In this document: positions 1 through 38,388 of the stretch, one piece after another
Layout of the letters: the number at the start of each line of letters is the position of its first letter
Position numbering within the stretch: the stretch's first letter is position 1
From: Minutocellus sp. GHC0000111
Taxonomy: Eukaryota
Assembly (NCBI GenBank): GCA_977018835.1
Contig: OZ361258.1
Span: 3,782,001 to 3,846,000, forward strand
Length of the DNA: 64,000 nt
Direction: 5' to 3'
Position numbers and translations under genes: made by a program
Notes under the pieces: model-generated
Told to the model about the DNA's origin: nothing
Seen by the model: only the letters and a program-made list of their open reading frames with translations
The model's database searches: none

Positions 1-299
1 GGCCCCTCTGCTGAGGATTGTTGCGTTAACCGGAAGATTTGGAAAATGAGCTTTGCACACCTTCGCCTTTCCCCTTGTTGACTCTCACCTTGTCTTGATT
101 ACAGAGCAACAGGGTTGTTCGCACTTGCTTGACGAGACACACACCTCTTGCAGCAGCAGCTTGCGGCAGTAGTTAAAAACTCGTTTTTGGACTTTTTGAA
201 TGCAAACAAGTGCATGGTTGTGCCAGTCTTTGTTATGGCATTGACTTCAGTGTTGCTGAAGTTTGCAAGATGGTAGTTCATTAGTTCACTTGCGTCGGC

Positions 300-832
300 T
301 GGAGTTGACTCTCCCCCACTCACACCTTCCAAGAAGGGCGGCAGTCAGCCGGACCAGTGAACCAAGGCCAACAGCCAAACACGCAGTTGACAGAGCATTT
401 GTTGACCCAGGAGACAAAAAGTTCGAGTCAGGAAACCCTGGCCTGCTCTACATGGCAGTGTCAAGGGCAACAACACTTGGCGAGAACACCAGCAGCAGCA
501 GCACCACCACACCGGCGCACCGAGTCCACCAAGTAAGTCTCAACTCAGCCATCTACTTCACAGGGCACAACATGACTTTGCACAGAGTGACAAACTTGAA
601 ACTGAAAAAGAACGGGGATGAATATGAAAAAGTTCAACTAAGGAACAAGTGGGTGGCACGAGTCGAAGCAAACACCGTGGGAATGCAGCTAGCTCCAGGA
701 GACACGCCAGAGGCGGCAGTGTTGGACTGGTGTAAAAATGAGCCAAGAAGAACTCGAACAAGCAACAGCCAATCCGGCATGGAGAGCAAACCTAATCAGA
801 GACCTAAATTATTAGCCAAAAATGCAAGCTAG
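300..832 (+). pseudogene. Degenerate PIF1-like helicase C-terminus, probable Helitron relic
   Basis: ORF 263-832 contains GLLYMAVSRATTL, resembling SF1B/PIF1 motif VI. A neighbouring frame from 318 reads THTFQEGRQSAGPV, resembling motif V (TxHxxQG), so the region is frameshifted. DNA is TA- and CG-poor with short microsatellites. Confidence 0.6.
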
Positions 833-1320
833 CCAGGCACAAAACAAACACAGAATCAAACAGGCAGGCTCTTCACAGAGAGTCACTTGTTACCAACACT
901 TAAACACTCCCATGTCCATGTGTGCACAGCAGCAGATGCAGCGGAGAGAAACAACAACATTCCAGCAAAGTGCCAAAGGGTGTTTGTTGGTAAAGAGAGG
1001 CCACATCAACCCTACCCATGCATCAACCCTCTCAATCAAAACCTGCTAACATATGAACATTCATCGCCCTATATTTTTACTTTCAATTTTGCCGCGGGTC
1101 GCCAGGAACACGGCTAAATCGGCCCTCGGCTCAGAACCCGGAAAACAATAGAGGCCGCCCGGGCCCATCCTTTCTTTCCTTCTTTCCGAGCTTCCTTCTT
1201 CCTTTCCTCCGGGTTCAAACTAAACTCAGGTAATGGTGGCTGTGCTTGTTGAGGAAATCCAAAATTGAGCTCACTTTTTGCCATTCGCGCGACAGAGGCG
1301 ACCTGTGTGAGAAAGAACCC

Positions 1321-6118: not shown

Positions 6119-7391
6119 TACCGGTATGGAAAGCATAATATCATATTCTCCCTGTCTAACTGTGCTTCCCATTTGTCGTAATCTATTTCTCTTTCGCTGA
6201 GCCAAAATTTCCAAATCTCTGGGTTCCAGCACACCATTGCTTTGTGCATCCAACTGGACAAACAATTCTCGTAGCTCATCAATCAGTTCTTGATCGACCT
6301 TGCCCATCGTCACAAGCATGTGTGTTATAAATTCAACCTCAGACACTTGGCCGTCGCTGTTGTCATCCATCGTCTTCAAATCTTCAAAAGGTCATTTCTC
6401 TCGAAAGAAACTCATGTTCAGCTTTATGTGCGGCCTTCGTAACGAGAAAGCCCCCAATGACACTGAGGATCTCACCTAAAATTGCAACGGACAGTGGAAT
6501 GAATATCACCGCGAAGAGCCTAGCCGCTTGAGACGCTGGAGCAACGTCCCCGAGCCCAACCGTCGTGGTCGTGATGAATGCATAATAAACCGATGTCCAC
6601 CACCCCCATCCTTCGTGTCGCCCCATGATGCCAGCGAGAACAACTATGAGCAAAATGTTTGGCGCCTGTGTGAGGACAAGATGTCTCAGAACAGTCATCA
6701 GAGTTGGTTTTGGAGCGGGCCTTACGTGAGGTACCGTGCTGTTGTCACCGGGAACTGTGAAGCTACTTATGGTAGAAGTATTTGTTGAAACAGTGTCGTT
6801 GTGTCGATGAAAACGACCTCGCAATGCGTCAACAATTCTCTGTTCTGCCGCTTCAACCGCTCCGGCTTCTGCTTCGACCAAGTTTCTGCCAATGTAGCCA
6901 AGAGTAATTCCAAGAATGCTGATTCCATACTGTGCAAAGAATACCGTAAATAATCTGCCGCCCCTTGTTTGTGGGCAGAGATCACCGTAGCCCACGGAAG
7001 TGAAGACCGTTGTAGCAAAGTAGAGGGAATTGACAATGCTCCACTTCTCGAAAATGAAGCTATATGCCACAACTGATAGGAGCATATAAATCAAAATATA
7101 GGCCGTGCAGAATCGCGATGCCCAAGAAGAGTGTGCCGCATCAACAAAGCCCTTTGTAATGCCGCTATGATCGTCGTCCTCTTCTTGATGTTTCTTCCTT
7201 TTGGCTCTCAACCATCGAGCTGTTCTTGCCCGGCTGTAAACATACTTCAAAGTTCTGATCAATGGACTCGATCCAATAATCACCTCGCGCCAAGTCAATT
7301 TGTGATGATTGTGGTAGTGATGAGCACGAAGGCAAGTCTGCCACCTTAGGGTGGTGCTTCTTCCCGGCATGGGATGTGACACCACGAGCAA
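6008..7391 (-). CDS. Two-pore (TPK/KCO-like) potassium channel with C-terminal EF-hands; frameshift at about 6385, both ends uncertain
   Basis: Two pore loops (TSVGYGD, TTVGLGD) with four TM segments. EF-hands (MDDNSDGQVSEVEF, LDAQSNGVL) lie in the next frame; removing one T from ACCTTTTGAAG gives REMTFEDLKTMDD. Confidence 0.85.
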
Positions 7392-7908
7392 CTGGTACCA
7401 ATTGTTTCACGACGAGATGGTCCAAAGAAAATATGTCACGGAATGCGCACTGCGAGACTTTCCCGATCAACCAAAGTGCCGAGAATCCAAGTGGATTCCC
7501 TTCCTTCTCGATGACATTGGTGTGGACCGCAACACCGTCGTCGTGGGTCACTCGAGTGGAGCTGCTTGCGCGATGAGACTGTTGGAATTAGATAAAGTTG
7601 ATGGACCACTTCGAGGTGCCATCCTCGTCGCTGCGGCTCATACCGACTTGGGAGATGAATGGGAGGCCCAGAGCGAGCACTTCAATCGACCGTGGGATTG
7701 GTCCAAGATGAAGAGTGGGGCCGATATCATACACTTGTTTCATGGAACGGATGATCATTTAATTCCTGTCCGAGAAGCAAGACACATTGCAGAAATGATG
7801 GAGGGCGATAACTTTGAATACAGTGAGCTCCCTGGCAAAGGACATTTCTTTTTTCCATGGCAGGAATTGCTGGACGTAATGGATAAGAAGTTTGGTGATG
7901 CAGAATGA
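7351..7908 (+). CDS. RBBP9/YdeN-like serine hydrolase (start uncertain)
   Basis: VLLPGMG, nucleophile elbow VGHSSGA, HGTDDHLIP (catalytic Asp) and GKGHF (catalytic His). Confidence 0.88.
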   Translation: MVLLPGMGCDTTSNWYQLFHDEMVQRKYVTECALRDFPDQPKCRESKWIPFLLDDIGVDRNTVVVGHSSGAACAMRLLELDKVDGPLRGAILVAAAHTDLGDEWEAQSEHFNRPWDWSKMKSGADIIHLFHGTDDHLIPVREARHIAEMMEGDNFEYSELPGKGHFFFPWQELLDVMDKKFGDAE

Positions 7909-8591
7909 TTGATTGAAGATAGATGAAAAAGTACATGTGCAGAAATTGATTTATAGTGAGTGCATGCACTACGTGCATGTAGATCTAGTTACCGGCAGGT
8001 CTCTAAAAAACATGATAGAGACGTCTGCCACCAGTAGATCTAGAGATCTAGAAAGATGTTGTTTGGAAACTTAAAAAAATAAAAATCCAAAATGAAAGTC
8101 TCCATTGTGATTCACTGAATGAATGCCGATCAAATCATCTTCGAATGGCGAGTCGAATTTTGCGGCGGCTTCCCGGTTTTGAACCGCAAAGTTAAAAGCT
8201 ATTCCCAGAATTACCCCCTTTCCTTGGGAACTTCCTAATTTGTTCCTAATTAGGGTTGTGTTGAAAATTTGTGTGGTATTTTGCCGTGTTGCAGCGGGCC
8301 CTGGCCCGAAGCATCTCCGGAGCACCCAATGCCCCTTTTCGCTTGTACATATTTTAAGAATAAAGAGCTCGCATTTTCCAGCATGTATGCAACTAAGTAA
8401 TCAGCAGGTAGAAGTGTCGAGGTCCCAAAGGTACAAATTACGCCGAGGATCTTGAAACAAAACTGGCCCATCTCGTCATCGACAGCGCAGCAGCACACAC
8501 AGGCCGATCGACCTACCGGCGATACCGCGTGGCCTCCTGCCAAGTTATCGCGAAGAGTAACGGTGCAACAACCGTGAGCGCTGCACAGCTT

Positions 8592-9961: not shown

Positions 9962-10969
9962 TTATTGCAAAAGCGACTCGGTCCACAATATTTCTTCTTC
10001 AGTAGGCTCTCGAAACTTGCCAACAGATAGGTCGCCCAGTCTCACTTCTCCGTGCCTTTCTCGCTTCAGTTCCAATACAGGATGTCCGCAATTGGCCAGC
10101 ATTCTTCTAACCATGCGATGCTTGCCTTCGGTGACGACTACGCGCACATCTGTTTGTTCCATTGATTCATCGCCATCCTCGCTGGCAGTACGTTCGCTTT
10201 CAGGGACAGGATATACGTCGAGAAGGTCAGCCTGGTGGACACCCTCCGAAGTTTCGACTCCACTGCTCAATTTGTGTCTCAATTCTTCTTCGTCAACTCT
10301 CCCTTCAACTCGAGCGACATACTCTTTCTCAACACCTCGTCTAGGATGTAGAAGTCTCTGGGTTAATTCGCCAGAAGACGAAAAGAGAATCAAACCAGTC
10401 GTCTCGTAATCGAGTCTTCCAACTGGATGTAATTTATTCGATGTGGAGAACTCGCATTCCTCCAGCTTTTCACCCAGGTGGCTTCGTTCCTTGTCGTCCA
10501 TGGCCGATAATACATACTTGGGCTTGTGATAAACGAGAATGGGCGGCGGTGGACCCGGCAACTCCTTTCCATCCAAATAAAGCGTCGCTTCAGGATGGAC
10601 CTTCTCGCTTGGCCCTTTGATGCCCACGATCTTGCCTGTACTCCTGTCCAAGTAACTAATCCTCTTTTGCCTGAGCAGCTTCGATGTATGAGACCGAGTT
10701 CCCACTCCGCGATTTGATAGCACACGATCTGCTCGAAGCAGCCCGGGCTGCTTTTTCTTGTACTTTTTTGCGCCGCCTACGCCGCTCGCCTGTTGCTTCT
10801 GCTTCTCGGCATATAACGAGGTGTGAAAGAATCGGGAAGCGATGGCTGATGCGACGGGTGCAGTATCTCGGACGGTGCAGGAACTTGGAACAAATGAGCA
10901 CATGCGTTGCCGACCAGCTACCCTACACATAGAAGCGGCCAACATAGTAGTCGCCATCATGGTCTTCAT
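9962..10969 (-). CDS. RsuA/RluB-family RNA pseudouridine synthase with S4 domain, organellar
   Basis: S4-like RADRVLSNRGVGTRS; YHKP; HPVGRLDYETTGL with catalytic Asp; EKEYVA; TEGKHRMVRRML. Confidence 0.92.
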   Translation of the reverse strand: MKTMMATTMLAASMCRVAGRQRMCSFVPSSCTVRDTAPVASAIASRFFHTSLYAEKQKQQASGVGGAKKYKKKQPGLLRADRVLSNRGVGTRSHTSKLLRQKRISYLDRSTGKIVGIKGPSEKVHPEATLYLDGKELPGPPPPILVYHKPKYVLSAMDDKERSHLGEKLEECEFSTSNKLHPVGRLDYETTGLILFSSSGELTQRLLHPRRGVEKEYVARVEGRVDEEELRHKLSSGVETSEGVHQADLLDVYPVPESERTASEDGDESMEQTDVRVVVTEGKHRMVRRMLANCGHPVLELKRERHGEVRLGDLSVGKFREPTEEEILWTESLLQ

Positions 10970-11809
10970 GCTCAATTCACGTACAATATTGTGCGCCTCC
11001 TTTCACTAAGAGTAGCTGGTGGCAGTGGACGTGGTGCGGTCGGTCGGCTCTCGGTCGGGCCGCCCGCGCCGCCGATTTGCAGATTCACAGCCCCATCTCG
11101 TCTTGTTTCGCCGGTCGGATGAAGCGTTTTTCGGCAGAAGACGAACACGTCACGAAGAAACCCACAAAAACCCAATCTCGTTCGTCACCCATTCTTTGAC
11201 CGTCCAACACCATGGTGGTCCGTCGGCGTTGCGCCGGCGTATAACTATATTTTCGTACCAAATACGCATTCATTATCATGTTTGGATATAGTTGAAGCTC
11301 ACTGTATCCTCAGATTGGCCTCCGCTGCGTATCAACGCCACGAACCATCGGCCTACTTTTCCTCCATCTGTCGGCCGTTCGTTTCTCTGGGGTGGTGCCA
11401 TTGCTCCGTCTTTGTGCTCGTCGTGCTCCCGTTGTGATGCCCCAGACCCTCTGGTACTTTCCCACGTTGTTGTTGATGATAAACTGCCGGGATTGCGCCG
11501 CACCCCCCGTATGACCGACTCTCGCTGATCCCGACCGATCGCATCCCCACTCGACCTCCCCCGGAATTCCGACACAACAATTTTGCGCCCGAGGAGAGAC
11601 AGATAGTATTGGGATAAGTTTATGCAACAATCAACCCGACAAAGGGACTTTTTGGTCTGGGAGATAAATGGGTGAGTTAAGAAGGACGTGATGTGTTTGT
11701 TTGGGTGTACTATTTACTTTTTTTGCTCAATCGCGACACTGTTTGTAAAAGTTGGATTATGCAATTCATTTGTTGTTGTGCAGTAGCAGTGTAATTTCAT
11801 TTTCTAATT

Positions 11810-13445
11810 TTATACATGCCCTGCTCCCATCTCTACATCCTCATCTCCATCGGTGCCCATCATGATCATTTGTTGGCGCTTGTCATCAGTTTCTGCTTTA
11901 ACAGCTTCGGTCCTTGTCCTTTTCCTTGTTCTTGCCACCCGAGAGTTTCGCTCCCGCCTCTCCTCGACCTTTGGATTGGATGCCCTCTCCTCAGCCTTGA
12001 ACTGCGCCGTCTGTTGGGCCTCATGTCCCTTGACGCCCTGAGTCCGACGATCTTCCTTAACGCCCTCTTGGTGGGCTCGCTCTACAAACGATTCGTCGAG
12101 CCAATAGATGCCGCCCCATCCATTCTTCACTAGCCAAATGTGTGTTGGTCCAAGATGTGATCTTCGAGTAAGTGCCACTTGGGCGTCATGCTATTGCCGA
12201 TTGCCCGTGCTTGCTTGAGGGCACTTGCAATCAATGCTTCAAGCTCTCTCACAGCCTTCTTTGCCTCATCATCCCATTTCATGTACCATTTCAGAAACCT
12301 GGAATGTGTTGCGTCAAGAGTGTGGAGCAAATTAGAGCAAGCTTTGCAGAGCTCTTTGATGTCGTCATCCGTCATGCCATCTTCCTCGCGATTGTGCTCT
12401 AGGAGAGTTCCTTTGGTGGAGGTGTTGTGGTGGATGAACTCTATTGTCCTTGGTTTCTTCTTGTTGTTGCCTGCCATCAGAAATGATAAAGCTCTCCAGC
12501 ATTCTGCCAGCACTGCCCTTGTTTTACCTGAGTCGGCCGCCTCAATGCCGGCCTTTTTCAGGAAATGGAAGTGAGGGGCATCGTCATCCTCGGCATCATC
12601 GACAGCTCCCATCTCTGGCTCGCCATCACCGTGCTTCTGACGATTCTTCTCAAAGTGCTGCTGCATGCATGATGCTTCATGTGTAGCGTCCTCTCTTGCA
12701 ATGTCAGCTTCGTCCTCATAAAAGGGCACACAGTCCTCGTCTTCGTCGTCATCGTCCTCACTGATCTCGCCGGCCTCCGTCGTGGTCAGGGTGCCCACCG
12801 TCCCAACATCGTCGTCATTGTCCCACCCATCGTCCTGGCCATTATGTGCCCACCAGGGAACTTCTGGGCCTCGAGCAACATCTGCCTGTTGATTTCGTAG
12901 TCCATCGCCGCATGTCCCACCGACGTGTGTGGTGCGGCCGACTTGAGGAATGCATTGCATGCCTTCGTCAAATTGAGCCGCGGCGGCGGTGTTTCGAGGC
13001 GAAATTGTTGCTCGACCGTGACCATGTCGAAAGCCATCCATCCATCATCATGGTGGAGAGCGTCGGCTGCACGAGGATTGATAGAACCGAGGCGAACAAA
13101 CATGCTCTTTTTGTGTGGGGTTCGCTGAACGTCGTCGGCAAGGCAGTGTCTTGATGCCATTTCATCCCATCCATTCTGGTTGTCTGTCCTCACAAAAAAC
13201 ACATCGTGGTCTTCGTGTTTCTTCTTCTTCAAACCCAAGATGCCCGCAGTGTGCATGACGGCGCCGTGCATGATGGGACTGCATCCCAACACATTCATCA
13301 AGGAGTCGTTGTTGTTGCCGATGAAATTGTAGTGATGAAGTTCCTTTCTGCGAAGACTGACGAGCAGTTCAGCCAGGGCGTCCTGCACCGCAATTCTGTC
13401 TGCGGTGTTGACCGCGGGATTGCGGCCGTTATTTTTTTTGCTCAT
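11810..13445 (-). mobile_element. Decayed, internally deleted DNA transposon ORF (Chapaev/Transib/RAG1-like C-terminal core)
   Basis: Three ORFs (13445, 13041, 12178) are each offset by +2. The joined C-terminus reads MTPKWHLLEDHILDQHIW...DESFVERAHQEG, matching the TPKxHxxxxH ... ExxExxH pattern. Strongly TA-depleted. No confident TIRs. Confidence 0.6.
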
Positions 13446-13900
13446 GGAGAACTATGGATCAAGACCAACGGGAACATCACCAGGATGTCGGGAGCACCTG
13501 GTTGGTCTCGTGCCGTAATTCTCCCACACCAGCGCGAGATGTCGCCTTCGTTCTGCACGTAGCGGCGGCAATTTGAATTTTTGCTGCCATGGTGGCTCGC
13601 GTTGGGCGCGCCGGTCGGTTGCTTCGCGCGCCGGCCGGCCACCGAAAGTGCGACCAAAAGCATGCGAGTCATCCGGCTGGCAGATGGTGCTGTGGATTGA
13701 TTGAGTGTGATCGTGTCCCTCTTTCGTGCGTCATCGGCGCGATTTCCGCCACTCTGCTGCTCTGCACTTCACTTTGCAACTTTGTGAACTGCTCGTCACC
13801 ACACCATGGCTCGGTCCAACCGCTTTCCCCTTGCAAACACCATTGCTTTAGGTCTGCCTGCACTTGCATAACGCACGAGAAAAAGTATTTGCCACGCACC

Positions 13901-14563
13901 ATGGCGAAAGAAATCGAAACCCTACTCGGCCCCACCATCCTCACGAAGGCCGGTGCTCCTGCGGCATCAACCTCGTCTGCCTCGGCCCTTGGATCGGCTG
14001 AGGCATGTCTCATCTATTTCTCGGCGTCGTGGTGCCCCCCTTGCCGCTCGTTTACCCCGATTCTCAAGGATTTCTACGAAAAGAATGGCAAGAAGAATGG
14101 CATCCAGGTGGTGTTTGTCTCCTCGGACAGTGATCTTCAATCCTTTGAGGAATGTTACAAAAAGATGCCGTGGCTGAGCCTGTCCACCGATGCGGATTCT
14201 GCGTCCATCAAGCAGAAGTTGGCCCAAATGTTTCAGATTCGGGGGATTCCTTCGTTGATTGCCATCGATGCCAAGAGTGGCAAATACATTACGAATGATG
14301 CGAGATCGGATGTGATGGGTGCTGGTGGTGATGATACAAAGCAGAAGGAAGTAATTCAAAAGTGGAAAAGCATCGAGGCCGTCCCCATCGAGGAAGCAGA
14401 TTTGAGCAGTGGCGCTGGGCAGGGTGGAATCGGTGCCATCGTCACCTTCCTTTTGAGAAATCCAATTTACATATTCGGGCTTCTTTATTTCGCCCGAAGA
14501 GCTCTGGCGTACTTGCAAGAAATGGGAAGAGACGATGATGAGCAAGGTGGTGGGGAACTCTAA
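13901..14563 (+). CDS. Nucleoredoxin/tryparedoxin-like thioredoxin-fold protein with C-terminal TM helix
   Basis: YFSASWCPPCRSFTP, VVFVSSD, MPW and IRGIPSL motifs; ACCATGG start context; hydrophobic C-terminal segment. Confidence 0.92.
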   Translation: MAKEIETLLGPTILTKAGAPAASTSSASALGSAEACLIYFSASWCPPCRSFTPILKDFYEKNGKKNGIQVVFVSSDSDLQSFEECYKKMPWLSLSTDADSASIKQKLAQMFQIRGIPSLIAIDAKSGKYITNDARSDVMGAGGDDTKQKEVIQKWKSIEAVPIEEADLSSGAGQGGIGAIVTFLLRNPIYIFGLLYFARRALAYLQEMGRDDDEQGGGEL

Positions 14564-15350
14564 AAGAAAGATGTCATTAATGTGTCGTCAATGGAAACTA
14601 AATGTCATGAACAATTCCAACTAGATCTAATTTAGCAAATCTACACACACTACAACATATTGTTCATGCAGAATGTACCGGTATGTAGAGTCTACCGCGG
14701 GGGTGATGATGTTGAGCATGCACCAGCTAGATCTAGCTCTGGCGCAGTTGCGTCGTCGTCGCATCGCATGCATGTGCCTAGGCAGGCAGGACACGAGCTC
14801 GCACCTTTCGATGGTGGCTGGTGCATTTCTCTACTCATTCGTAAAGAAGGCGCTGGCTGGTGGTAATAAGAGTAAGGAGCAGAAGGCATAACTTATCGCA
14901 TAAAGGGATAAAAAGGATACATGTAATGTAACTTCGTTTACCGGCACCAGTGGGAGCTAGCTACAGCATTGTTGGGTGGAAGCTACGGTACGTGATGAGT
15001 ATACGTACGTAATGTCGTCTGTCCATCGTCCTCGGTACCGTAGTACCGTAGTACCTTTCGGTTTCAGAGGATTTGTAGAGGGTATACCAATAACCCCTAA
15101 AAAAAGGTCATTCTTGCACCCATTTCTCATTTCCCACCACGTGTTTTGTTAGTCGACATTCTCTTCGGGAGGAACGCAAATGCTCCTCAACTCGTGGATA
15201 TCTACTGGACCTGCTCATTCAGTAGGTTGCCACCGACCAGTAGTATCCACTGAATTCGCAGGTCCAGTAGATTCTGGCAGGAACACACACGTGTTTTTTG
15301 GTCCCCCGCACACCCTCTCTCTCACACCGCAACCCGCAAATTTTGTGACG

Positions 15351-18237
15351 ATGACGACGACCAACCAGACCACGCCCAAAAAATACAAACGCAGCAGAAC
15401 TTCGTTCTCAGGGAGCAAGAGAGGCAACACCAAGGCATCCAGGAAGGCGGCAAAGGCGGCAGCTGAGCCGAAAACACCATCGCCGAGCGCAAACACGTCG
15501 AAGAAGCGGCCACGGTCAAATTCGCCCGCCAAACCGTCACCGTCGTCGGCGAAGAAGAGGACGGCCCCTCCTCCTATCCCCATGGCCTTTCTCCTTGCAG
15601 CAGATGTCATTCGAAGGGCTGGTAAGGATCTGTGGTGGAGAGTAACCCCCGATTCCTGCGGCAAAGATGACATTTGTGTTGGTTCTCGGCAGAAATGGGA
15701 AGGAAGAAGACGTCCTCCCTGCTTTCATCGAGGCCGACTTGTTGCGTTCCAAGTCCGTCGGTGGAGGAAAGTGTGAGCTACAGTACAACGAGGAAAAATG
15801 GAAGGACATGCAGCAACAACATCTCAAGGAGCATTGTAGTTTGAAGTTGCACTTGTCGACGTGTCGGCCGAGAGGGAAGACAAGAGACGCAGGGCGCTTT
15901 GTGTTTGTGCTCACAGGTTGCGTAAAAAGAAGGAGGACAACCACCCGAAATTCTCTGGACCGGAGGGACAGAAGGTGCACGAGAAAAGAAATCCCGATGA
16001 AGTTCTGTTCTCTGGGCGCTCGACTGTCTTAGCTACTAAGCTAGGTGAGAGGTTGTCAGCTCACAGAAAGGAGGCACAGTCAGCGCATTGCGAAGCAAGA
16101 GCAAAATCACTAGTCGACGAGGCCAAGAAACTGGGTTGGATGCCAGCAAGTCTCCTCAGCATACTGAAGGGAACTGGTGATACTTCCGCCACTGAAGCAG
16201 CTGCAGCCTCCCCCAATGATGAAGGTTTAGGAGGAGCCGATGCTTCCATTGTCTGTGCCACCTCCAGTGACATTGATGAACAGGTAAAGGTCGCTCTCGG
16301 CCTCGACTTTGTTGTTCGGATGGCCAACGATGACATGCTCCGTCCTCCTCGTCCCAATGCAACCGTCACCGAACCAACACCAATCAGAAAAGAAAAGCAG
16401 GCGAATGAAAGAATGCGGTTCAGCGCCGTGGCTCTCGCGGATTGGTGGGGATGCGGCGACCCAACTCGCACGTGTGAAGACCGGCAACAAATTGCAACTG
16501 CCGCGTGTCGGCAAGTTGCGCACGATCACGGTCATGCCAAGTCAACCGGTGGTTCTCAGCTTTACAAGTGGAGAGACCAGCTCTACAAAAGCCTTACTGA
16601 TGGCATCAGCAATCCCATCGGCGGAAAGGAGGTTCGTGGAAGGAAGAAGGCGGCATGCACTGACATGATCGAGGAGAAGGAGCCAGGACATCTCCGCGAG
16701 CTGCATCGGCATGCTACTCGGATGAAGGGTGCGATGGCAACCTTTAAGGAGCTAGCTGACTGCATGAGCGCAAAATCAGCTACTCCAGATGAAGATAGGC
16801 TGACAATTAGTCTCCATCGTCTTCAGCTTTTTCGCTGGTGGAAAAAGCAAGGCGGTAAGGAGAAGTCGTCGATCGAGAAGCCGAGGCTCACCCCCGAATG
16901 TTGTAGGAAGCGACTTGATTGGATCGAAAAGTGGGAGGACATTACGACCGATCCCAACATTCCTTTAGCGTATCTTGATGAAAAGTGGTTTTACGCTGCT
17001 ACTCGGCGACGAAAGATCAAGATGTTGCCACTTTCTGACGAAGAACTAAGCAGTCCGAACCTCGCGTCTGTCCATGCTTCCGAGGCAAGCCCGAAAATTC
17101 GATCCAGAAGACACCCTGTCAAAGTTATGCATCTTGGAGTTGTTGGCCGACCAATGAAGGATGAAACCAAAGACGTTGATTTCAATGGGCGCATCATGAT
17201 CAAGAGAGTCGCCAGGGAGCAGAAGGTGGAAAAGCTTACGCGTAATCAGAATTTCTCTCCAGATGCTAAGGTCAACGATGCGCTAAAAAATGACAAAGAT
17301 TGGCGCGACATTTACGACGAGAATGCTGACATGACCGCCGGCCATCTTTGCGACCACATTGCCGAAATCTACGGCCTTTCTGAGTTTGTTACAGAGCGAT
17401 TGGAACTTCAATACGAGGACTATAAATCCGACGGTCAGGCAAAAAGTCGCAAGCATGCCGCTGTTGGCTACAATCAAAAGATCTCGAGTCTCAAGCGACA
17501 CACTCCTGATAGCAATGGAGAGAAGGTGAAGGTTGAGATCGACGACCTTGAGCTCGGGGTGCGGCATCAACGGGGCGATAAGGTTACCAAGGACTGTAGC
17601 TGCGACTCCAAATGGATGTTGGAGACTATGAATGAGGTCGGGAAGGCGATTCGAGACGCACATCATTGGGTGAAGTGGGATCCACAAAATATTCAGGAGT
17701 CTGATGTTATGTGTCTTATGATGGACAATGCCGGCGGTCATGGGTCCAATGAAGCAGTTGAGAAGTACACCGAGGACCTCAAAAACAAATATAAGATTGA
17801 GATAATCCAGCAGGTTCCTCGGTCGCCCGAGACAAATGTTCTTGATCTCGGCATCTGGATGTCTTTGCAGTCGGCCGTCAAAAAGGAGCATCGCGGTCAG
17901 AAGAATGATGCGAATGCTCTTGACAAGAGACTGTGATGAAAGTATGGGCCAATGTCGCATCAAAAGAGGCCTTTCTCAATGTATTTGGGTTAGGGTTAGG
18001 CTAACCCTAACCCTAACCCTAACCAGTGATATATAACAACATCAAGAGAAGTCGTGGCGGTAACAATCTTGTGGAGACCAGACGGGGAAAGGCTGGTCTC
18101 TCGCAAAAATTGCCGAGGAAGAAGCTGAAGAGGATGGTGAACCACTCTGGCCAATTGATGCTCCCGGCGAAGATGATGACATTGAGGACGACATAGATGA
18201 AAATGATGAAGACGATGGAGTCATTGATTTGCTATAA
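15351..18237 (+). pseudogene. Frameshifted DD39D transposase of element 1 (about 950 aa if repaired)
   Basis: YLDEKWF (D1), MDNAGGHG (D2) and PRSPETNVLDLG (D3), with 39 residues between D2 and D3. Frameshifts near 15665, 15925, 17928 and 18100, plus a telomeric tract at about 18000. Confidence 0.88.
17987..18024. repeat. Head-to-head interstitial telomeric repeats GGGTTAGGGTTAGG|CTAACCCTAACCCTAACCCTAACC
   Basis: Read directly from the sequence: TTAGGG units immediately followed by CCCTAA units. Confidence 0.9.
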
Positions 18238-18564
18238 CTTATCATAGCATGTCCATTTCTATTCATTACATTTTGATTTGGTGCTTCCAAAAATGCATTT
18301 TTTTCCCGGGGTGAGGAATGCAAATGTCGAAAAAAAAATCATCACATAATGTACATTTATTGGTTCTGGTGCACAATATCTCTCGACTATATGTAGAAGT
18401 TGGTGACCATAACTTGGTTCTTGCCCCGACTTCCATATTGGCCGTCATTTATTCCTCGGAGTTAGAAAAAGTGAGCTTGGATTTTTGGTCTTGTGTGGTC
18501 GTGTTTCTAATACGTCATCATCACGTCACTTTCAAATCCTCTGAACTCGAAAGGTACCTACGCC

Positions 18565-18586
18565 TAGGCCTAGGTACCTAGGCCTA
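18565..18586. repeat. Perfect 22-bp palindrome TAGGCCTAGGTACCTAGGCCTA in the spacer between the two mariners
   Basis: Self-reverse-complementary; built from TA, CC and GG units. Confidence 0.9.
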
Positions 18587-20445
18587 CGAGGTCAGATTCG
18601 CGAGAAATCGACCGCCCGGATTTTGACTGCTTTCGAGGGGATTGAAAAGCGCCTCGAAGAATAGTCATGCTGAAATATTTAAGAAAATGGCTATTTTTAC
18701 TCTAATTTTGATTTATCTTCATGTGAAACAATAATTCGGATAAGACTTTAGATTTCAGCGGCTCTAATCAAATGGACGCGTTCGTCGCACTTGGACCGGT
18801 ATACTGCTTCCCAACGAGTGCCGATGATTCATCTGATTCGGCCGCCTTCCGTTCTGTCATCGACGATCTTGCAACGGCGACCCGGCGGTATACTGCACCA
18901 TGTCTCTTTGCAATTGCCAAGTGCAGGGAGCAGGCAAAGGTGGACTATTCGGTGCTGTCCAGCGCAGAGCATGGTGCACGATTTTCGGGATGGATGAAGG
19001 CGTATGGTGCTCTACCTGCATCTGAGAAGGCGATGTGGGAGATGAAGAGGAGATCTCATCTGGCTATGCAGCCATACATTCGAGATGTTATTGTTGATGC
19101 TCTGATACGAAATCCTCGGGAATCTTGGCGGGAGCTGGAGGTGGATGTCAACTTTTGGTGTTCCTACTCGGCAATACGGCGGTGGATAATGTCGCGGGAA
19201 GGGTTCCGGTACTATGCCGAAAGGATCATCCCTCTCCTTACTACACATCAGATGGAGAAACATTTGGCATTTGCGCGGAAATTCCGAAACAATTGGGGGC
19301 TCGGCGGTGGCAAGTTTCTCCTTGTTATGTTCGATGAGAAGTGGTTTTGGGGCTTGGTTCTTCGATCGCATGCCAAGCAAGTTGCAGAATTGGGTATTGA
19401 TCCTCGGTCCTTCTCGGCATATCACCGAAATCACATCAACAAGTGCATGGTGGTGGCTGTCACTGCCTTGGCTTTTATTGACAGCATTGAGAATGGCGGC
19501 ATTGCGTTCAAGCTTGGACTTTTTCGGGCTCAGGCGCATAAAATTGCGAGGCAGATGGTAAGGGAGGCGGTGCGGCAGGCAGATGGTAGAATCAAATATT
19601 GCGGCCCGGTGGTTCGGAAGAAAGACGATCTATACCTTGTGGATTGCGCGGTGACTGGATGCAGCCATGGCACCCTTGATAATCCCAAGTTCCCACTGAA
19701 AGCTTTGTTTGAGAACAAGATATTTCCGGATGTTGAGGCTTTGGTCGGACCTGGCGGAAAGTTTGAAGGCTATGTCCCTATTTTCCAGGGCGACAATGCT
19801 GGGCCCCATGCCGAGACTGAATTTGTGGAATATGTGGACGGAAGGATACTGTCGGGACAAGGGATGGCGTTGGGAACCTCAGGCCCCGCAAATGCCCCAT
19901 ATGAATGTTCTTGATCTGTCTGTTTTCCCTTGCATGCCAAAGCAGCATACAATGTTGTGCCGCGATCGGGAGGGGCTGAAGGTTTTGACAGAGGATCAGA
20001 CTTGGGATGCAGCGGAGGAAGTTTGGATGGGGCTGGAAAACTGGAAGATCGCATCGGCATACATCCAGGCTCATAGAATTGCAAAGAAGGTAATCGTTGC
20101 AAAAGGCAACAATGATTTTCTTGGAAACGGTGAAGGCATTCATGTTGGGGTGCGAAAGGATTTCAGGCCGACTGAAAATGGCATGGTTCGGATAGATGGG
20201 AAAATTATCGCTCCTCCTCCTGCTGATCCAACCATGGATAATTAGTCCTGCGGTGCTTTTAAGTTATATTGTGTTTAATAATACTAGATTGGATTGTAGA
20301 TCTGGATACTAGCTGCTGCAATACATGTACTTTGCATCGTACATGTATTCAATGCCGGTAGATCTAAGATTCAGGCGGTTGCGGGCCCAAAAAGTCGCTG
20401 TTTTGGTCCCGACCCTGCGCTCGATTTCTCGCGAAACGGACTTGG
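18587..20445 (+). mobile_element. Tc1/mariner (DD39D) element 2, 1.86 kb, with about 29-bp imperfect TIRs and TA flanks
   Basis: Left TA|CGAGGTCAGATTCGCGAGAAATCGACCGC versus reverse complement of the right end TA|CCAAGTCCGTTTCGCGAGAAATCGAGCGC; shared 15-bp exact core TTCGCGAGAAATCGA. Confidence 0.85.
18772..20245 (+). pseudogene. DD39D transposase of element 2 with a single +1 frameshift at about 19837
   Basis: FDEKWFW, QGDNAGPH and PQMPHMNVLDLSVF. Removing one G in GTGGACG joins ORFs 18772 and 19709 and restores exactly 39 residues between D2 and D3. Confidence 0.88.
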
Positions 20446-30419: not shown

Positions 30420-33400
30420 TTACGATTGCTGGCACTCAGGCTTCCCCTCAATCTCAGAGCCGGGCTGTGTTGCATCGATCAATGATCGTGGCTTCTTCTT
30501 CTCATGCCGAGCATCAGCGCTTGATTCGAATGCAAGATTTTGAACATTCTCTTTCGCTACCTCGTCGTCCAGCGGATCTTCCTCTTTTCTTCCGGCACCG
30601 TCGCCGATGTCCTTCATATCAGGCGATCGGGCGGTGTGGAATGATTGCACACTGTGAACACTCATGTTGGTGGCATCCATACTCATGCTCATGTTGGCGG
30701 AAGAAGCACCGCCGATTGCATGATTTCTCTCCATTCGCTGAAGAGCAAGCTTGGTGGTTGTCAGAGCCTGCTTCACCTTGTTCAGCTCTTCTTCCAATTC
30801 CCACGATCTTTGGTCTGATTTCTGCACGTCAGACAAGTACGAGGAATTCTTCATGACCAGTTCACGCTTTTCGTCCTGCAGTGTCTGGATGGTATCCTCA
30901 TACTCGGCACGAAGAGCGGAGATGGTAGATGTGTCCTTGGTGGCACCATACTGTCTTGACGATGACGTTACATCAGTGGAATGGGAAAAGTCAAGATCAA
31001 AGGGAGCCGCGCCTCCTTGTGCGAGCTTCTTCTTGAGGCCCTTATTCTCTTCAAGCATTGCATTAAACTCCTGCTGAAGTGTCTCGAACTGCATCTGCGT
31101 GCCACTGTCCGATCCATACCGTGATCCAAGCATCCGGCGGTAACGATCATTGTCGCCCGTTAATGTCATTTTCTCCCTTTCGAGCTTCTTGATGCGATCT
31201 TGGAGCTCCTCGGCTTCCTGAATCAGCTCCGCCTGACGCCCACTGGCAACCTGAAGCTTTTGCTTGTACTGCGTAATCTTGGCACGCGCCTTCTCCTCGT
31301 ACTCCTTTTGCTCCTCCGTGAATTGAGCGCACATTTGCCGAATCTCATCCTTCTCGGCAGTGTGAGCCTCCTCCTTGGCCGCCATCTCTTCGGCAGCCTT
31401 GGCCTTGACATCTCGGATCATATTCTTGCCCTTGGCTACCAGCTTCTCCCTCTCCTCCTTGGCTTGGGCGGCAGCTTCCTCCATAGCCGATGCATGCTGC
31501 TTCTCCAAATCAGCAATGCGCTGCTCAGATTCTTCTTGCGCAGATGTGAGAGCCGCCGATGTTGACGCTTCCAATTTCGATAGAGCATTGGACGACTGCT
31601 CCTCGATGGATCGCTTCTCCTCTTCAGCCTTCTCGAGAGCCTCCTTGCACCGAATTTGCTCATCTTCCAGGAGGGAGTTCATCCTTGTCTCCAAATCCTC
31701 CATATCTTCCCTAGCCTTGTCAATCAGACCCTGCTTGGTCTCCTGGAGGGTCCGTTCGGCATCAATCAAAGCCTTTTGGTGAGCGAGCTTCTCATCCTTT
31801 AGCTCATTTCCCAAGTTGGACACGTCATTGTTGAGAGTAGCAATTTCGAGCTTGAGCTGCTCTTCCCTGAGCATGCTATCTCTCAACGCCTGCTGAGCCT
31901 CTGACAGTTCATTCTTAGTGGCCAAAAATTGCTCCTTGTAGCGCTGAGCAAGGCGTTGGTTATCATCGAGCGACTCTTCAAGTTTCTGCACAGAATCATC
32001 CTCTCTCTGCGAAGCAAATGCCTTGAGACGAGCATTGTCGTTCCTCAAGCTCTCCATCTCGGCCATGAGCGCAGGATTCAATTCGCTGTAGATTGTAAAA
32101 GAGCAAAGCATTCAACATAAGTTCGTTTCATTCGGCATGATGATATGTCATTGACTGCGCAGATCCAAGCGTCATAATACTCACCTCAATCCCTCTCCAA
32201 CAGCGGGGCCCTTGGCACCACCAGAGGATTCGGTATCTTCCATCAGCCGCTTTCTCAGACCCTCGGTCTCCGACTGGTGGATCATGACTCCCTGTTTGAG
32301 TTCCTTGTTCATACCGGTCAGCTCCGAACTGATCTTTTGCAGATTCTGCAGCTCCTCCTGACACTCGGCCAGTTTCACCTCGGCATCGACGGCCCGAGTT
32401 TTGTAGTCCTCCAACTGCCGGCGAAGGGGCTGGAGCGACTTGAGCTCGTTTTCCAGTTCCAACCCACGAGCGATGGCAGCACCGTGTGCCTCCTCCGCCC
32501 TGGTCAGCGCCTCCTTGGCGTCGCCCATCCGCTCCAGCTTCTCCCGGCACTTGCGGAACTCCTCCTCGGTCGAGGCCAGCCGCTCCTTGGTATGGTTTAG
32601 GACGTCCACCTCGTCGCGGAGGGCATCGAGCTCCTCCCGCGCGTCGGCGGCATCCTTTCGGCAGTGACGGAGCTCCTCCACCTCCCTCCGCAGGGCGGTT
32701 AGCTCCTCGGAGTACTGATCGCTAATGTCCTTCTCGCGGGCGATGGAATCGGCCTCAATCTTCATCTTCTCGGCCCGGTGCTTGGATTCGATATCATCCA
32801 GCTGCGATCCCAGATCGGCCTCCCTCTGCCGGGCCACCTCCAACTCCTTCCCGACGAATTCGAGCTTGCCCTTGAGGTCTTGAATCTCCTCCATGGCGGC
32901 TGTGGAAGTTGTGGTGGAATGATCATAGCTAGTGCGGCTGTGCTTGGCGCTGCTGTTTCCACCATTTGCAGCTGAATCATCCTCGTCATCGTCATCGGCG
33001 CCATCATTGGCAGTGGCAGCCGGTGAAAAGACACTCCCGACGGGACTGAAGATCTCATCATTGGCACCGCGATGCATCTTGACGGCCGACATGGGACACT
33101 GTCCCATCTTCTTTGTGGACGTTACTGGAGTGGTAGCATTGTCACGATCGTTCTCCTTTTCATCACATCCATCCTCCTCCACGATGGCCTTGGACCTCTT
33201 CTTGGCGGGAGTGTAGCCACTCTTGAGCGGGGACATCATCCGTGCCCCGTTCCGGCCGGACAGGATGGACTCCATGACGCTCGCCACGCTGGCGGCACCG
33301 ACCGATGCATCGTCGTCGTCTTCCCCGCCGTCGTTATTGTTTGAGGCTGCTGCATTGGCATTGTTGACGTCGCTGATAATCTTCATCAGGGACATTTGCT

Positions 33401-34124
33401 CGGCGCTATCCATTCCCATGATCCGGCCGATGTAGGTCTTTTGGAGGGGACATTCTGCCGAAACGGCCTGGCAGAGGAGGGCGGTGAGAAAGGATTCGAC
33501 GGTCGACATGGCATTGTCGTCGCTGTTCTGGACAATGGCTACAATATCCTCCTCGTCAATGGCACCGTCAGTGATGGCCATGATATGCTTCCACACGGAA
33601 TCGACGTCGCTGCCGGCGGACGATTCTCCATCGTTGCCATTATCATCCTCGTGACCGTACAATTCCTTGACGGCCTCGAGGAGAGCTCTGTTTTGGATTA
33701 GAATATGATGCCATTGTATGTAGATGAAAGGTGAGAATGGCACAGAATTCTCGATAAAATCTCAAAGAAGCCAAAAGAACGGCAAAAGCAACAACACTCA
33801 CGCTACCACCTCCCGATCGCCAAAGTTGCACCCCATAGTGTCATCGTTAGCATCAAGATGATCCTCCAGGACAGGAAACGTCCGTAGCCAGCAAAGCAGG
33901 GCCGAGCAGTTGGGCGTCATGTTTCTCGAATTTTGGTCGTTGGTCTCGCCGTCGTCCTCGTCTCCTTCACCGGACGAGGTGGAGCTATCGGCGTCGGAAG
34001 AATCGCAATCGCTGGGACTCTCGTCGTCGGTACCGGTAGTCGGCATATGCTCCTCGCTGGTGCTTTCGTCTACTGTGCCAGCGGGAGGCGGTGCCTCGGC
34101 GCCGCCGTCGCCTTGGGAGTCCAT
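30420..34124 (-). CDS. Hook-family coiled-coil dynein adaptor-like protein; three exons (introns 33801-33688 and 32184-32086)
   Basis: Hook-domain-like segments (LLCWLRTFP; AECPLQKTYIGRIMGMD..EQMSLMKII), ELDALRDEVDVL, and SELNP..MAEMESLRNDN across the splice junction. Both GT-AG introns keep the frame. Confidence 0.75.
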
Positions 34125-34285: not shown

Positions 34286-35620
34286 GTGTTCGAATCGCTC
34301 ATGTCCGGTCGAGACATTTACAGCGTCGAGGATGACTGTCCTCCGCCTGATGACGCAAGGAGAAAGATATTCCAAGCCCAGCTCATCAAGGACTGGGCCA
34401 TGGCGTACCGCTTGAAGAAAATTGTAGACTCTTGTCCTCCTCAGGATATTTTTCTCGTATTGGCCGGCAAGGCTCACCTGACGCATTATCATGGTGTGCC
34501 CGAAGTTTACTCTTGGCTGCAACGGGCAGACGGGAAGGACATTGATCCGGGTGATCAATTACTGGTCTGTGCACAAATGATGTACGAGTGTGATTTGGAT
34601 GAACGAAGCGATAAGGAAGATGACGATGTGGCCGAACGAACCATTTTGGCTAGCGAGGTTGTTCGAGGATCGTTGTTTGGCGAAGGATCTGGCGGTAGCT
34701 TCGAGAAACCCGTGGCTGATGTCTTGTACGTTTACGATGAAGAAGATTGGAGCGATGACGAAGACGAAGACGATGATAATAGCGATAGCGATGCCTCTGA
34801 TGCAGTAAAGAAGGAAACAATCGAGGCATACGAGAAAGTAGGATCGACTGCCGCAACTCCAGGAAATGTTCGCAAGGCTCGGGCGATTTTGACGTACTTG
34901 GGCTACACAGAAGAAGAGCAAGCAGTCATCGGAGATCAAGATATTTACAACTATCAAGGCGTGGGCAATCCGTTTCCACTTGCAGCCATCAAGAAGGGTG
35001 AGCACGTAATTGATTTGGGGAGTGGTCTTGGCATTGATTCATTTGTCGCATCACATTATTGCGGATCCGATGGAAAAGTTCTAGGCATCGATATTGCCAA
35101 GAAGGAAGTAAAGCATGCCAATTCGAGGGCTGAAGACAGAGGGGCTTCTTCCTTTGTTTCATTCCAGCATGGAGACATCGAAAAGCTCACTGATGTCGAA
35201 TCCGATTCCTTCGATGTTGCCATTTCCAACGGAGCGTTCTGTCTAGCTCCTAGCAAAGAAAAGGCTTTTGCGAGCGTCTATCGAGTCCTCAAGCCTGGCG
35301 GAAGAATGGCCATCTGCACAACGACTGTGCGGAAGGATCTTGATGTGGAAACGCAGTGGCCTCTGTGCATGAAAATGTTTATCCACCTCGACAAGATCAA
35401 ACCCATTTGCGAGGCCCTTGGTTTCAAGAATGTCAAGGTCGATCTTGGCGATGCAGATCTGGAGTTTGAGCTAGAAGGCGTAACCGAGGAAGATTTTGAC
35501 GATGCTAACGACACGAGTGGGAGAGAAAGGATCCATGTAGGGAGCTCAGAATTCAAACACTTGGAAGGTTATGACATGAATGATTTGTGCGCACGCGTCG
35601 TTGTGTATGGAGAAAAGTAG
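34286..35620 (+). CDS. Partial ChaN-like domain fused to an ArsM/UbiE-like SAM methyltransferase; 5' end apparently missing
   Basis: IFQAQLIKDWAMA...LVLAGKAH...GVPE resembles the ChaN C-terminal half; YQGVGNPF, VIDLGSGLGID, SFDVAISN and VYRVLKPGG mark the methyltransferase. Confidence 0.75.
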   Translation: MFESLMSGRDIYSVEDDCPPPDDARRKIFQAQLIKDWAMAYRLKKIVDSCPPQDIFLVLAGKAHLTHYHGVPEVYSWLQRADGKDIDPGDQLLVCAQMMYECDLDERSDKEDDDVAERTILASEVVRGSLFGEGSGGSFEKPVADVLYVYDEEDWSDDEDEDDDNSDSDASDAVKKETIEAYEKVGSTAATPGNVRKARAILTYLGYTEEEQAVIGDQDIYNYQGVGNPFPLAAIKKGEHVIDLGSGLGIDSFVASHYCGSDGKVLGIDIAKKEVKHANSRAEDRGASSFVSFQHGDIEKLTDVESDSFDVAISNGAFCLAPSKEKAFASVYRVLKPGGRMAICTTTVRKDLDVETQWPLCMKMFIHLDKIKPICEALGFKNVKVDLGDADLEFELEGVTEEDFDDANDTSGRERIHVGSSEFKHLEGYDMNDLCARVVVYGEK

Positions 35621-37245: not shown

Positions 37246-37524
37246 AAGCACTCAAAACCTCCAAAGAAACACATTTCTCCGTTTGTACGATTACGTGGCA
37301 CCGGAAAGGGCTTATGATCATGGAGCCGCATGACGTGGCACAATAGAGAGGGCTGGTGTATTCCTCCGCTCGGACATAATTCGGTCTCGAATTGATCTCG
37401 GCGGAAATGTTTTGCCGTTTCGCCGCTCTGAGCAAAACCGGAAGCGTCTGACTCTGTCAATTGTTGCCCCAGCTCAGCTCATAAATTCGCCGCAATCAAA
37501 TGAACCAACCCAATCATCCCAAGC

Positions 37525-38388
37525 ATGTTCCGTCCGCGATCTACCATGAGTACCTCCTCTTCCCCAACACTCATCAACACCGCTCCCAGGCAAACCACCG
37601 CTGCCACTGCTGCCATCGTCGCTGCTTCGGGCGGCGGCATCGGCGGGAGGCTCATTTGTCCAGATAGAACATCCAATGCCCAAATTTCTCCGAGCGAAGC
37701 CTCAAGAGACCGAATCCTCAAGATGTGCCGTCTCCTTGAAAACAGGAAGCGTAGGGCTCTGTCCAACGAAGAGGCTCAGGCGCTGACAGAACGAATCGAG
37801 ACCATCCTCTACAAATCCTCCGCCAACGGCACAGACGCCCTCGACAGGGTCAAGTCGATCCTCGCCGAGCGACAACAGCACCGACAGCAGCAAAAGAAGC
37901 TCTCCACAGCTTCTGCCACCAGCACCAACACCGACACCAACACCGACGAGAATCAGATGAGCCCGCTCGAAGACATTCTCGGCACCAAGAGAATGACCGA
38001 GATTGAACAGCTGGTATCAGAGATTAACACTATTCGTTCTGGTACATCATGGGCCGGAATCATCCGTGCATCCCTCACCCTCGGCACCTCAAGTGCCGGA
38101 ACTTCCACCTCCCTGGCGCGCAAGATGCCCAAAGAAGTGCATGCCATCTACTTTCGCACTCGGCTCATGTCTGCCTACACAAATATCAAGAATCAAGCAG
38201 CAAACCCATCGTTTGATGCCAGACGAGTTGACATTTACAACTGGTCCGAGCTCATCGACGAGGCCAAGACAAATATTGCCGCCTATCATGCCCTCGAGGA
38301 CACCCACAAGAGCATCATCGCCGAAACTCCCGTCGTTTGCATGGGTGGCCTTTGCTCTCGCGTAGCACCGTCCCCTCGTGCGGCATGA
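37525..38388 (+). CDS. Hypothetical protein
   Basis: 287-aa ATG-initiated ORF with coding-like composition; LTERIETILYKSS is weakly KIX-like. Confidence 0.6.
   Translation: MFRPRSTMSTSSSPTLINTAPRQTTAATAAIVAASGGGIGGRLICPDRTSNAQISPSEASRDRILKMCRLLENRKRRALSNEEAQALTERIETILYKSSANGTDALDRVKSILAERQQHRQQQKKLSTASATSTNTDTNTDENQMSPLEDILGTKRMTEIEQLVSEINTIRSGTSWAGIIRASLTLGTSSAGTSTSLARKMPKEVHAIYFRTRLMSAYTNIKNQAANPSFDARRVDIYNWSELIDEAKTNIAAYHALEDTHKSIIAETPVVCMGGLCSRVAPSPRAA

Follow-up and report, generated by a model that had tools for sequence, protein, structure and literature searches.

Why are some transposons so poor in the dinucleotide TpA in a 64,000-nucleotide stretch of Minutocellus sp. GHC0000111 (contig OZ361258.1, positions 3,782,001 to 3,846,000)? 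The whole stretch is called the window below, and positions are counted from its first letter. An earlier note on this DNA proposed, for 12900–17730, that old transposons had undergone repeat-targeted TpA>TpG/CpA hypermutation. The flagged interval consists of two high-copy elements, named here the left element and element 1, and a host gene; a third element, element 2, adjoins it (Table 1). The TpA signature in the transposons is real and targeted, and likely marks a host mutator damaging mobile DNA. As the note had claimed, TA is changed to TG or CA on both strands, with a concentration in repeats.

Copies of element 1 were compared at the protein level. Related protein records number in the hundreds; a search with the transposase gave 66 relatives, extended by cluster look-up (among the matches listed, 15 of 275 cluster members were taken in for P0002 and 15 of 146 for P0140). 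The relatives include an intact sister family (P0001, P0067 and P0071; 852 aa, 88% identical) as well as numerous broken copies from long contigs. Fifty-five records and the window were mapped to the window frame, and 54 of these 56 sequences were kept. The two dropped are P0106, a presumed duplicate of P0003 even though their mappings differ, and P0076, which matches the window frame at 99.7% identity. Scoring covers replacement changes only, and the copies partly share ancestry. Read on either strand, A>G at TpA was found at 641 of 2631 copy-sites (24%; 0.244), compared with 62/14703 (0.4%) for other A>G. The expected excess of TA>TG/CA is thus present; it is at least about 58-fold and near saturation at RTAY (R, purine; Y, pyrimidine). 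By preceding base, the A>G rate was 0.244 after T, 0.003 after A (16/4936), 0.010 after C and 0.001 after G. Counted by site, 69 of 103 possible TpA replacements were seen versus 33 of 594 for other A>G (Fisher p 7e-44), and transversions at TpA amounted to 5/4902 (0.1%). Automatic polarisation gave 0.22/0.24 versus 0.004, and the outcome was the same after hand correction of seven sites.

The direction of the change can be read from tyrosine codons. The frame 15840–17933 of element 1 is His-rich, as noted earlier (on recount 24 His and 11 Tyr, also 15 Cys), and all five motifs in which the note expected Tyr hold it in intact relatives; it is Tyr, not His or Cys, that intact homologues carry at these positions. 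Over 29 reference-Tyr sites the copies read Tyr 261, His 257, Cys 183, Arg 4, Gly 1 and Leu 1 times, with no Phe, Ser, Asn or Asp. His (CAY) and Cys (TGY) are the two single-step products of TAY and are mutually exclusive. Double hits (TA>CG) were considered and rejected, the 4 Arg among 444 changed Tyr being about the background expectation. In ten Tyr columns of 53 homologues, Tyr (343) drifts to Phe (35) rather than to His (9) or Cys (0); the window has His or Cys at 6 of the 10. None of 467 residues reads Tyr at the 20 His/Cys sites common to element 1 and the sister family. TG/CA variation may also be put down to CpG decay, to C>T change of the type known from repeat-induced point mutation (RIP), to codon bias or to sequencing artefact. 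CpG decay likewise yields TG/CA pairs, and CpG transitions in element 1 are mildly raised (18/3800; 0.0047 versus 0.0017). But a CG ancestor would encode Arg (CGY), and the outgroups have Tyr (TAY), so that the ancestral state was TA; CpA>TpA, the RIP change, was found at 4/3760. The direction is therefore opposite to both RIP and CpG decay, as proposed. The polarised counts refute this group of explanations for element 1, and altogether we regard it as very improbable.

The target is narrower than TpA: it is T[A]Y (mutated base in brackets, written on the A>G strand), and RT[A]Y is the strongest context. In the copies of element 1, RT[A]Y was hit at 450/1116 (40%), YT[A]Y at 131/719, RT[A]R at 58/471, chiefly at three sites, and YT[A]R at 2/325 (0.6%). 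T[A]G was hit at 7/359. An ApT mark is unnecessary, since the hit rate is equal at T[A]C (0.315) and T[A]T (0.319). The strand rates are even (0.22 and 0.24). Strand-coordinated, processive mutation was tried for element 1 and rejected, with 97 same-strand adjacent hits versus 100 ± 6.5 after shuffling.

These counts bear on two further explanations. One is a Pol eta- or iota-like error-prone polymerase that repair would bring to repeats and that would place G opposite T, mostly at TpA. Pol eta prefers WA motifs, Pol iota inserts G opposite T, and no new base chemistry would be required. But ApA transitions and TpA transversions are at background, and neighbouring hits show no repair-patch strand coordination, so that this explanation is unlikely. 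Alternatively, a modified T in R[T]A, such as 5-hydroxymethyluracil made on repeats by a TET/JBP-type enzyme, would pair with G and be fixed as C. The spectrum and the strand symmetry are equally predicted, the context can be read as R[T]AY, and 5-hydroxymethyluracil occurs in dinoflagellate repeats. Literature matches for 5-hydroxymethyluracil, transposon and diatom were, by title, dinoflagellate papers only, and we consider this explanation a minor possibility.

Since 28 distinct Tyr/His/Cys patterns over the core sites occur among 29 copies of element 1, most hits took place after insertion or amplification. Among 43 copies the TpA load varies between 8% and 41%. Outside TpA the copies differ by well under 1% per substitution class, which means that the transposons are young and that the word 'old' in the earlier note does not hold. 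Along the transposase, polymorphic RTAY Tyr sites 5′ of 17300 are changed in 70–100% of copies (11 sites) and those 3′ in 0–60% (5 sites; p 0.002). The contrast falls to p 0.21 when four fixed His sites are counted, and the 5′ bias of TpA load in element 1 is a lead only. Two RNA-labelled runs have greater contig depth over the 5′ half; this cannot show expression and was not used.

Composition along the window was compared with the record of the copies. Recounting reproduced the earlier figures: a single TA in the 430 nt of 12900–13329, none in the 276 nt of 16287–16562, and, for the sampled 2–3 per 60 nt, 2.31/60 nt in 6120–8400 and 2.26/60 nt in element 2. Such raw counts are moderately telling at most, because TA observed/expected is 0.56 over the whole window, host DNA at 43108–43426 contains a TA-free run longer than either flagged stretch, and 0.07–0.08% of host windows are equally TA-poor at both flagged lengths (medians 14 and 9 TA). 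The fraction RTAY/(RTAY+RTGY+RCAY) was calculated block by block and compared with host DNA by the Fisher test. In 53.5 kb of host DNA, where RTAY is the commonest TA context, it is 611/2227 (0.274). The left element has 1/84 over 11901–13694 (p 2e-10); element 1 has 9/78 over 15054–17299 (p 0.001) and 13/60 over 17300–18554 (p 0.38), and element 2 has 27/94 (p 0.81). YTAR depletion was not significant in any tested block. RTAY loss was thus seen in elements and is absent from the 53.5 kb of host DNA, with a possible leak into one flanking gene (see below). Unrelated metagenome loci have RTAY fractions of 0.22–0.45, to which the host value is close. A metagenome scan gave no copies of the element-1 family; seven distant element-1-related loci (29–62% identity), used as composition controls, are without RTAY loss. 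At one of these, L003, the flank has CpG observed/expected of 0.09 yet normal RTAY, which is classical methylation decay in another host.

A genome-wide process, in which host genes look spared through selection, would agree with the low TA observed/expected of the window and with three replacements in the neighbouring nucleoredoxin-like gene that need TpA transitions (see below). It would also agree with a few host-like blocks (32801–33600, 35001–35600 and 37401–38000) that are RTAY-poor at low counts; these may be due to chance, codon bias or small repeats. But the host RTAY fraction lies near those of the metagenome loci, though synonymous and intergenic sites are free to change, and TA-rich footprints remain beside the elements. 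We consider a genome-wide process quite improbable.

The left element allowed a check at the DNA level. Four runs were compared over 12860–13400 and 22 differences were listed; detection is incomplete, since site 13082, from the best 40 of 149 difference rows, is missing among the 22. Fifteen of them fall in nine dinucleotides that are TG here, whereas other copies have TA, CA or both. At six sites where both rows are available, the depth of G>A equals or exceeds that of T>C in runs X1 and X2, which points to a TA ancestor rather than CG. The dinucleotide 12924–25 (two rows) is CG here and TG or CA elsewhere; it is ambiguous and, together with the CpG-poor block 1–1000, speaks for some CpG decay. 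The remaining five differences are unrelated. The alternative states were seen in runs from three studies, including X17, which comes from another study and year, and this disfavours an assembly artefact; their recurrence across several studies and years likewise tells against sequencing artefact. Protein fragments of the left element show Tyr/His/Cys and Ile/Met/Thr splits, with Tyr in distant relatives at KWY. Within 12860–13400, all nine TA-derived sites are TG on the plus strand and none is CA, a one-strand run unlike element 1.

Element 2 had been taken by the earlier note as a spared internal control. The window copy has only one visible hit (Tyr>His at 19369), but the family shows the same spectrum and context at a lower load and is not an untargeted control. 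The set comprised 63 records; the first frame could be aligned with 53 of them, the second with 28. P0252 and P0259, short-contig records, were excluded. TpA transitions were found at 72/1922 (3.7%) versus 20/12639 (0.16%) for other A>G, and the contexts RTAY (61/1034), YTAY (10/520) and RTAR (1/368) follow the order of element 1. The TpA load is about 6 times lighter than in element 1 and the family is less diverged overall. Element 2 is a younger or less exposed target. The suggestion that the process erases the TA target sites of mariners is rejected at this locus, because four TA duplications are intact, as is the TA-rich spacer, and host RTAY is not depleted relative to the metagenome loci.

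Taken together, the mutational record tips us, by a small degree, towards a host DNA adenine deaminase that would act distributively and be steered to repeated or silenced DNA. Adenine in TpA would be converted to inosine by deamination, and replication would then fix a guanine at the site. Hits would build up singly after insertion, in keeping with the lack of strand runs in element 1, and targeting might operate through repeat chromatin or small RNA. The transposases would be crippled by missense changes (Tyr>His/Cys, Ile>Met/Thr/Val, Thr>Ala, Val>Ala), because a TpA transition cannot turn a sense codon into a stop. A deaminase fits best because the changes are pure transitions that affect both strands alike, with T strictly on the 5′ side and a pyrimidine at +1. 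That the process is adenine-directed and a defence is what we infer.

Several points weigh against this interpretation. The deaminase is putative, deduced from the mutational record, and a lesion at the thymine of R[T]A in the opposite strand leaves the same traces. The substrates of TadA/ADAT enzymes are RNA loops or single strands, and here neither strand is favoured; nor is the +2 G of TadA evidently needed, as TACT and TATN sites are well hit. The TpA load does not follow other divergence over the 43 copies of element 1 (rho 0.12, p 0.46), so a steady clock is not supported. All copies of element 1 share four fixed Tyr>His changes, which implies that the parent element was already hit yet multiplied; a defence role is thus no more than putative. 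Copy counts are not independent events, protein records are biased to long open frames, and the copies may stem from more than one assembly.

The structure of the locus is summarised in Table 1. The window holds three high-copy DNA transposons, identified as repeats beside a single-copy gene by the depth contrast in run X1, where summed contig depth, which is not copy number, is 10,000–20,000 over the elements versus about 10 over the nucleoredoxin gene between them. The sequencing runs matching the stretch are labelled sponge and marine metagenome.

Table 1. Coordinates and properties of the features discussed.
Feature	Position	Strand	Properties
Second RTAY-poor block	1..1000	+	RTAY 1/47; TpA 0.35; CpG 0.43; LLYMAVSRATT frame
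Left element	11086..13694	-	Decayed, frameshifted; CMC/Transib-like by termini and motifs
Nucleoredoxin-like host gene	13901..14563	+	Single depth; between 5′ ends of left element and element 1
TA target-site duplication left of element 1	15052..15053	.	Intact, GTAC context
Element 1	15054..18554	+	IS630-Tc1-mariner type; TA duplication; ~22-nt terminal inverted repeats
Element 1, 5′/central transposase region	15840..17299	+	Polymorphic RTAY Tyr sites 70-100% His/Cys among copies
Spacer between elements 1 and 2	18555..18586	.	Intact TA duplications at both ends; TA-rich, palindromic, footprint-like
Element 2	18587..20445	+	Tc1/mariner-like; TA duplication; young family; light TpA mutation

The left element has the ends CACAG...CTGTG, with termini pairing at 12/13 nt, and is flanked on both sides by a 4-bp GATT duplication. 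Both features agree with the 5′-CA..TG-3′ termini and 2–5 bp duplications given for CMC/Transib in the available part of the source (PMC12730594). CMC/Transib has C(2)C and H(3-4)H before the catalytic Glu; the left element carries TPKWHLLEDH and ES.VE..H, that is, H-LLED-H and then ESFVERAH, and gave no Pfam or PDB match. Its copies are 73–95% identical, depth is high from 11500 onward with a loose contig end at 13694, and its TpA mutation is strongest over 11901–13694.

Elements 1 and 2 agree with the IS630-Tc1-mariner type in their TA duplications and terminal inverted repeats. The transposase of element 1 has the motifs DEKWF, DNAGGH and NVLDLG in a frame broken by small indels. It gave no Pfam and no PDB match itself; its relative P0004 has a weak PF01498/DDE_3 match. 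Element 2 matches HTH_Tnp_Tc3_2 (PF01498; E 1.5e-6, below the curated cut-off) and has a 51% relative named from Cylindrotheca closterium. The flanks of element 1 (15030–15053 and 18555–18586) contain stacked palindromic TA-rich words (GGTACCGTAGTAC repeats and CCTAGG runs), a pattern like that of an insertion hot spot where excision footprints have piled up. In one X1 contig 15285 adjoins 18585, and other contigs are without 17 bases near 14911–15078. The 5′ untranslated region of element 1 (15200–15272) holds a 24-nt inverted repeat with a 25-nt spacer. The C-terminal frame is interrupted at 17986–18022 by an insert of telomere-like repeats in head-to-head order, (GGGTTA)n followed by (CTAACC)n; X6 and X7 contigs are shorter by 34 bases at this point. 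The insert has the look of a telomerase-type repair scar that only the window copy carries. The frame in block 1–1000 recalls what we take to be a helicase motif of a Helitron-like element. The block has no Pfam match, and it is possibly the end of such an element hit by both TpA and CpG processes.

The nucleoredoxin-like gene has its best named relative in Extubocellulus spinifer (taxon id 265572; 60% identity); this and the Cylindrotheca relative of element 2 mark the host as diatom-like. Residue 85 is Cys in the window protein and Tyr in 19 of 21 related sequences. Of the other two, both with Cys85, one is the same protein as in the window and one is a Logan record. Compared with its two closest alleles, the window allele has four derived replacements. 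Three of them, Y85C, V22A and I35A, each require a TpA transition at an RTAY site, TpA transitions making up 25 of 424 possible replacement transitions in the gene (p ~0.002, post hoc); the fourth is opposite in direction (TG>TA). The RTAY fraction of the gene, 4/23, is not significantly low. Stray TpA hits may have leaked into it from the elements. A long contig (P0282) carries a second, frameshifted copy of the gene, and the trigger could therefore be duplication instead of spreading.

A wider picture, in which diatoms have an undescribed 'reverse RIP', is offered tentatively and with some doubt. A repeat-guided RT[A]Y DNA adenine deaminase would act on both strands of young transposons with a promoter-side bias and spill into neighbouring genes, serving as a defence and a source of alleles; if shared with Rhizaria, it would be a natural dsDNA adenine editor found throughout SAR (stramenopiles, alveolates and Rhizaria). 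Heritable A-to-G editing of genomic DNA has hardly been seen in nature, and if the proposal is true, this would be mutational genome defence outside fungi, with a chemistry opposite to RIP. Annotation, dating and GC content of diatom transposable elements would be biased, because young elements look old and open reading frames stay open while losing Tyr. The T[A]Y/RT[A]Y rule can serve as a fingerprint when a candidate enzyme is to be matched in vitro, and also in comparison with the 231 mutations of Bigelowiella.

Among known systems, decay of 5-methylcytosine resembles the present one in leaving TG/CA in repeats and may co-occur in block 1–1000; it starts from CG, and in element 1 the TpA process exceeds the CpG process about 50-fold. 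RIP of ascomycetes is similar in its dinucleotide-specific transitions on both strands of repeats, its variation between copies and a possible leak into neighbours. It changes C to T, chiefly as CpA>TpA, so that TpA dinucleotides and stop codons arise (PMC2621366); here, unlike RIP, CpA>TpA is at background, His/Cys>Tyr is absent (0/467) and TpA is destroyed. Diatoms possess a RID-related DNMT4, a cytosine enzyme listed without an assigned function in the part of PMC9998398 available. TadA, ADAT and ADAR editing is alike in that A with a 5′ U/T is read as G; unlike this RNA editing, the change here is heritable and affects both DNA strands of cut-and-paste elements. Bacterial TadA has the motif TACG, with Y>C and T>A recoding (PMC12255301, available portion), and ADAR the context UAG (PMC10661471, available portion). 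The strict 5′ T and +1 pyrimidine are nearer to the former; the one-strand UAG preference of the ADAR type is not observed, T[A]G being hit least and both strands being affected.

The phenomenon has one published precedent, on the evidence of the main text of a 2026 preprint: de novo TpA>TpG/CpA hypermutation of integrated nucleocytoplasmic large DNA virus and virophage DNA in the chlorarachniophyte Bigelowiella natans (Mettrop et al., bioRxiv 10.64898/2026.01.13.699255). No other report of TpA hypermutation in diatoms or algae was among the matches listed, which mostly leave subscription journals uncovered. In B. natans two viral regions are affected, the larger confirmed as single-copy, and the de novo rate is about 1000-fold over background in a subset of lines. 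TpA-depleted coding sequences are enriched for DDE and reverse-transcriptase domains, and transposons were suggested as further targets; the authors propose an ADAT-like (ADAT2-like) deaminase, unproven there (10.64898/2026.01.13.699255). In both systems the two DNA strands undergo A>G/T>C at TpA, in foreign DNA only, against the usual AT bias and almost exclusively as transitions (here 641/2631 versus 5/4902 transversions). The main text of the preprint does not contain 'diatom', 'stramenopile', 'trinucleotide' or 'flanking', and its supplementary mutation list may show the same context as the rule added here, with RT[A]Y best and YT[A]R spared. Transposons are implicated there by composition only, unlike the present case of a diatom-like host, multi-copy DNA transposons and copy-versus-copy evidence. 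The 5′ bias and the leakage into the neighbouring gene are leads; new here are the diatom host, the multi-copy DNA transposons, the copy-level quantification, the RT[A]Y rule and the graded load between families.

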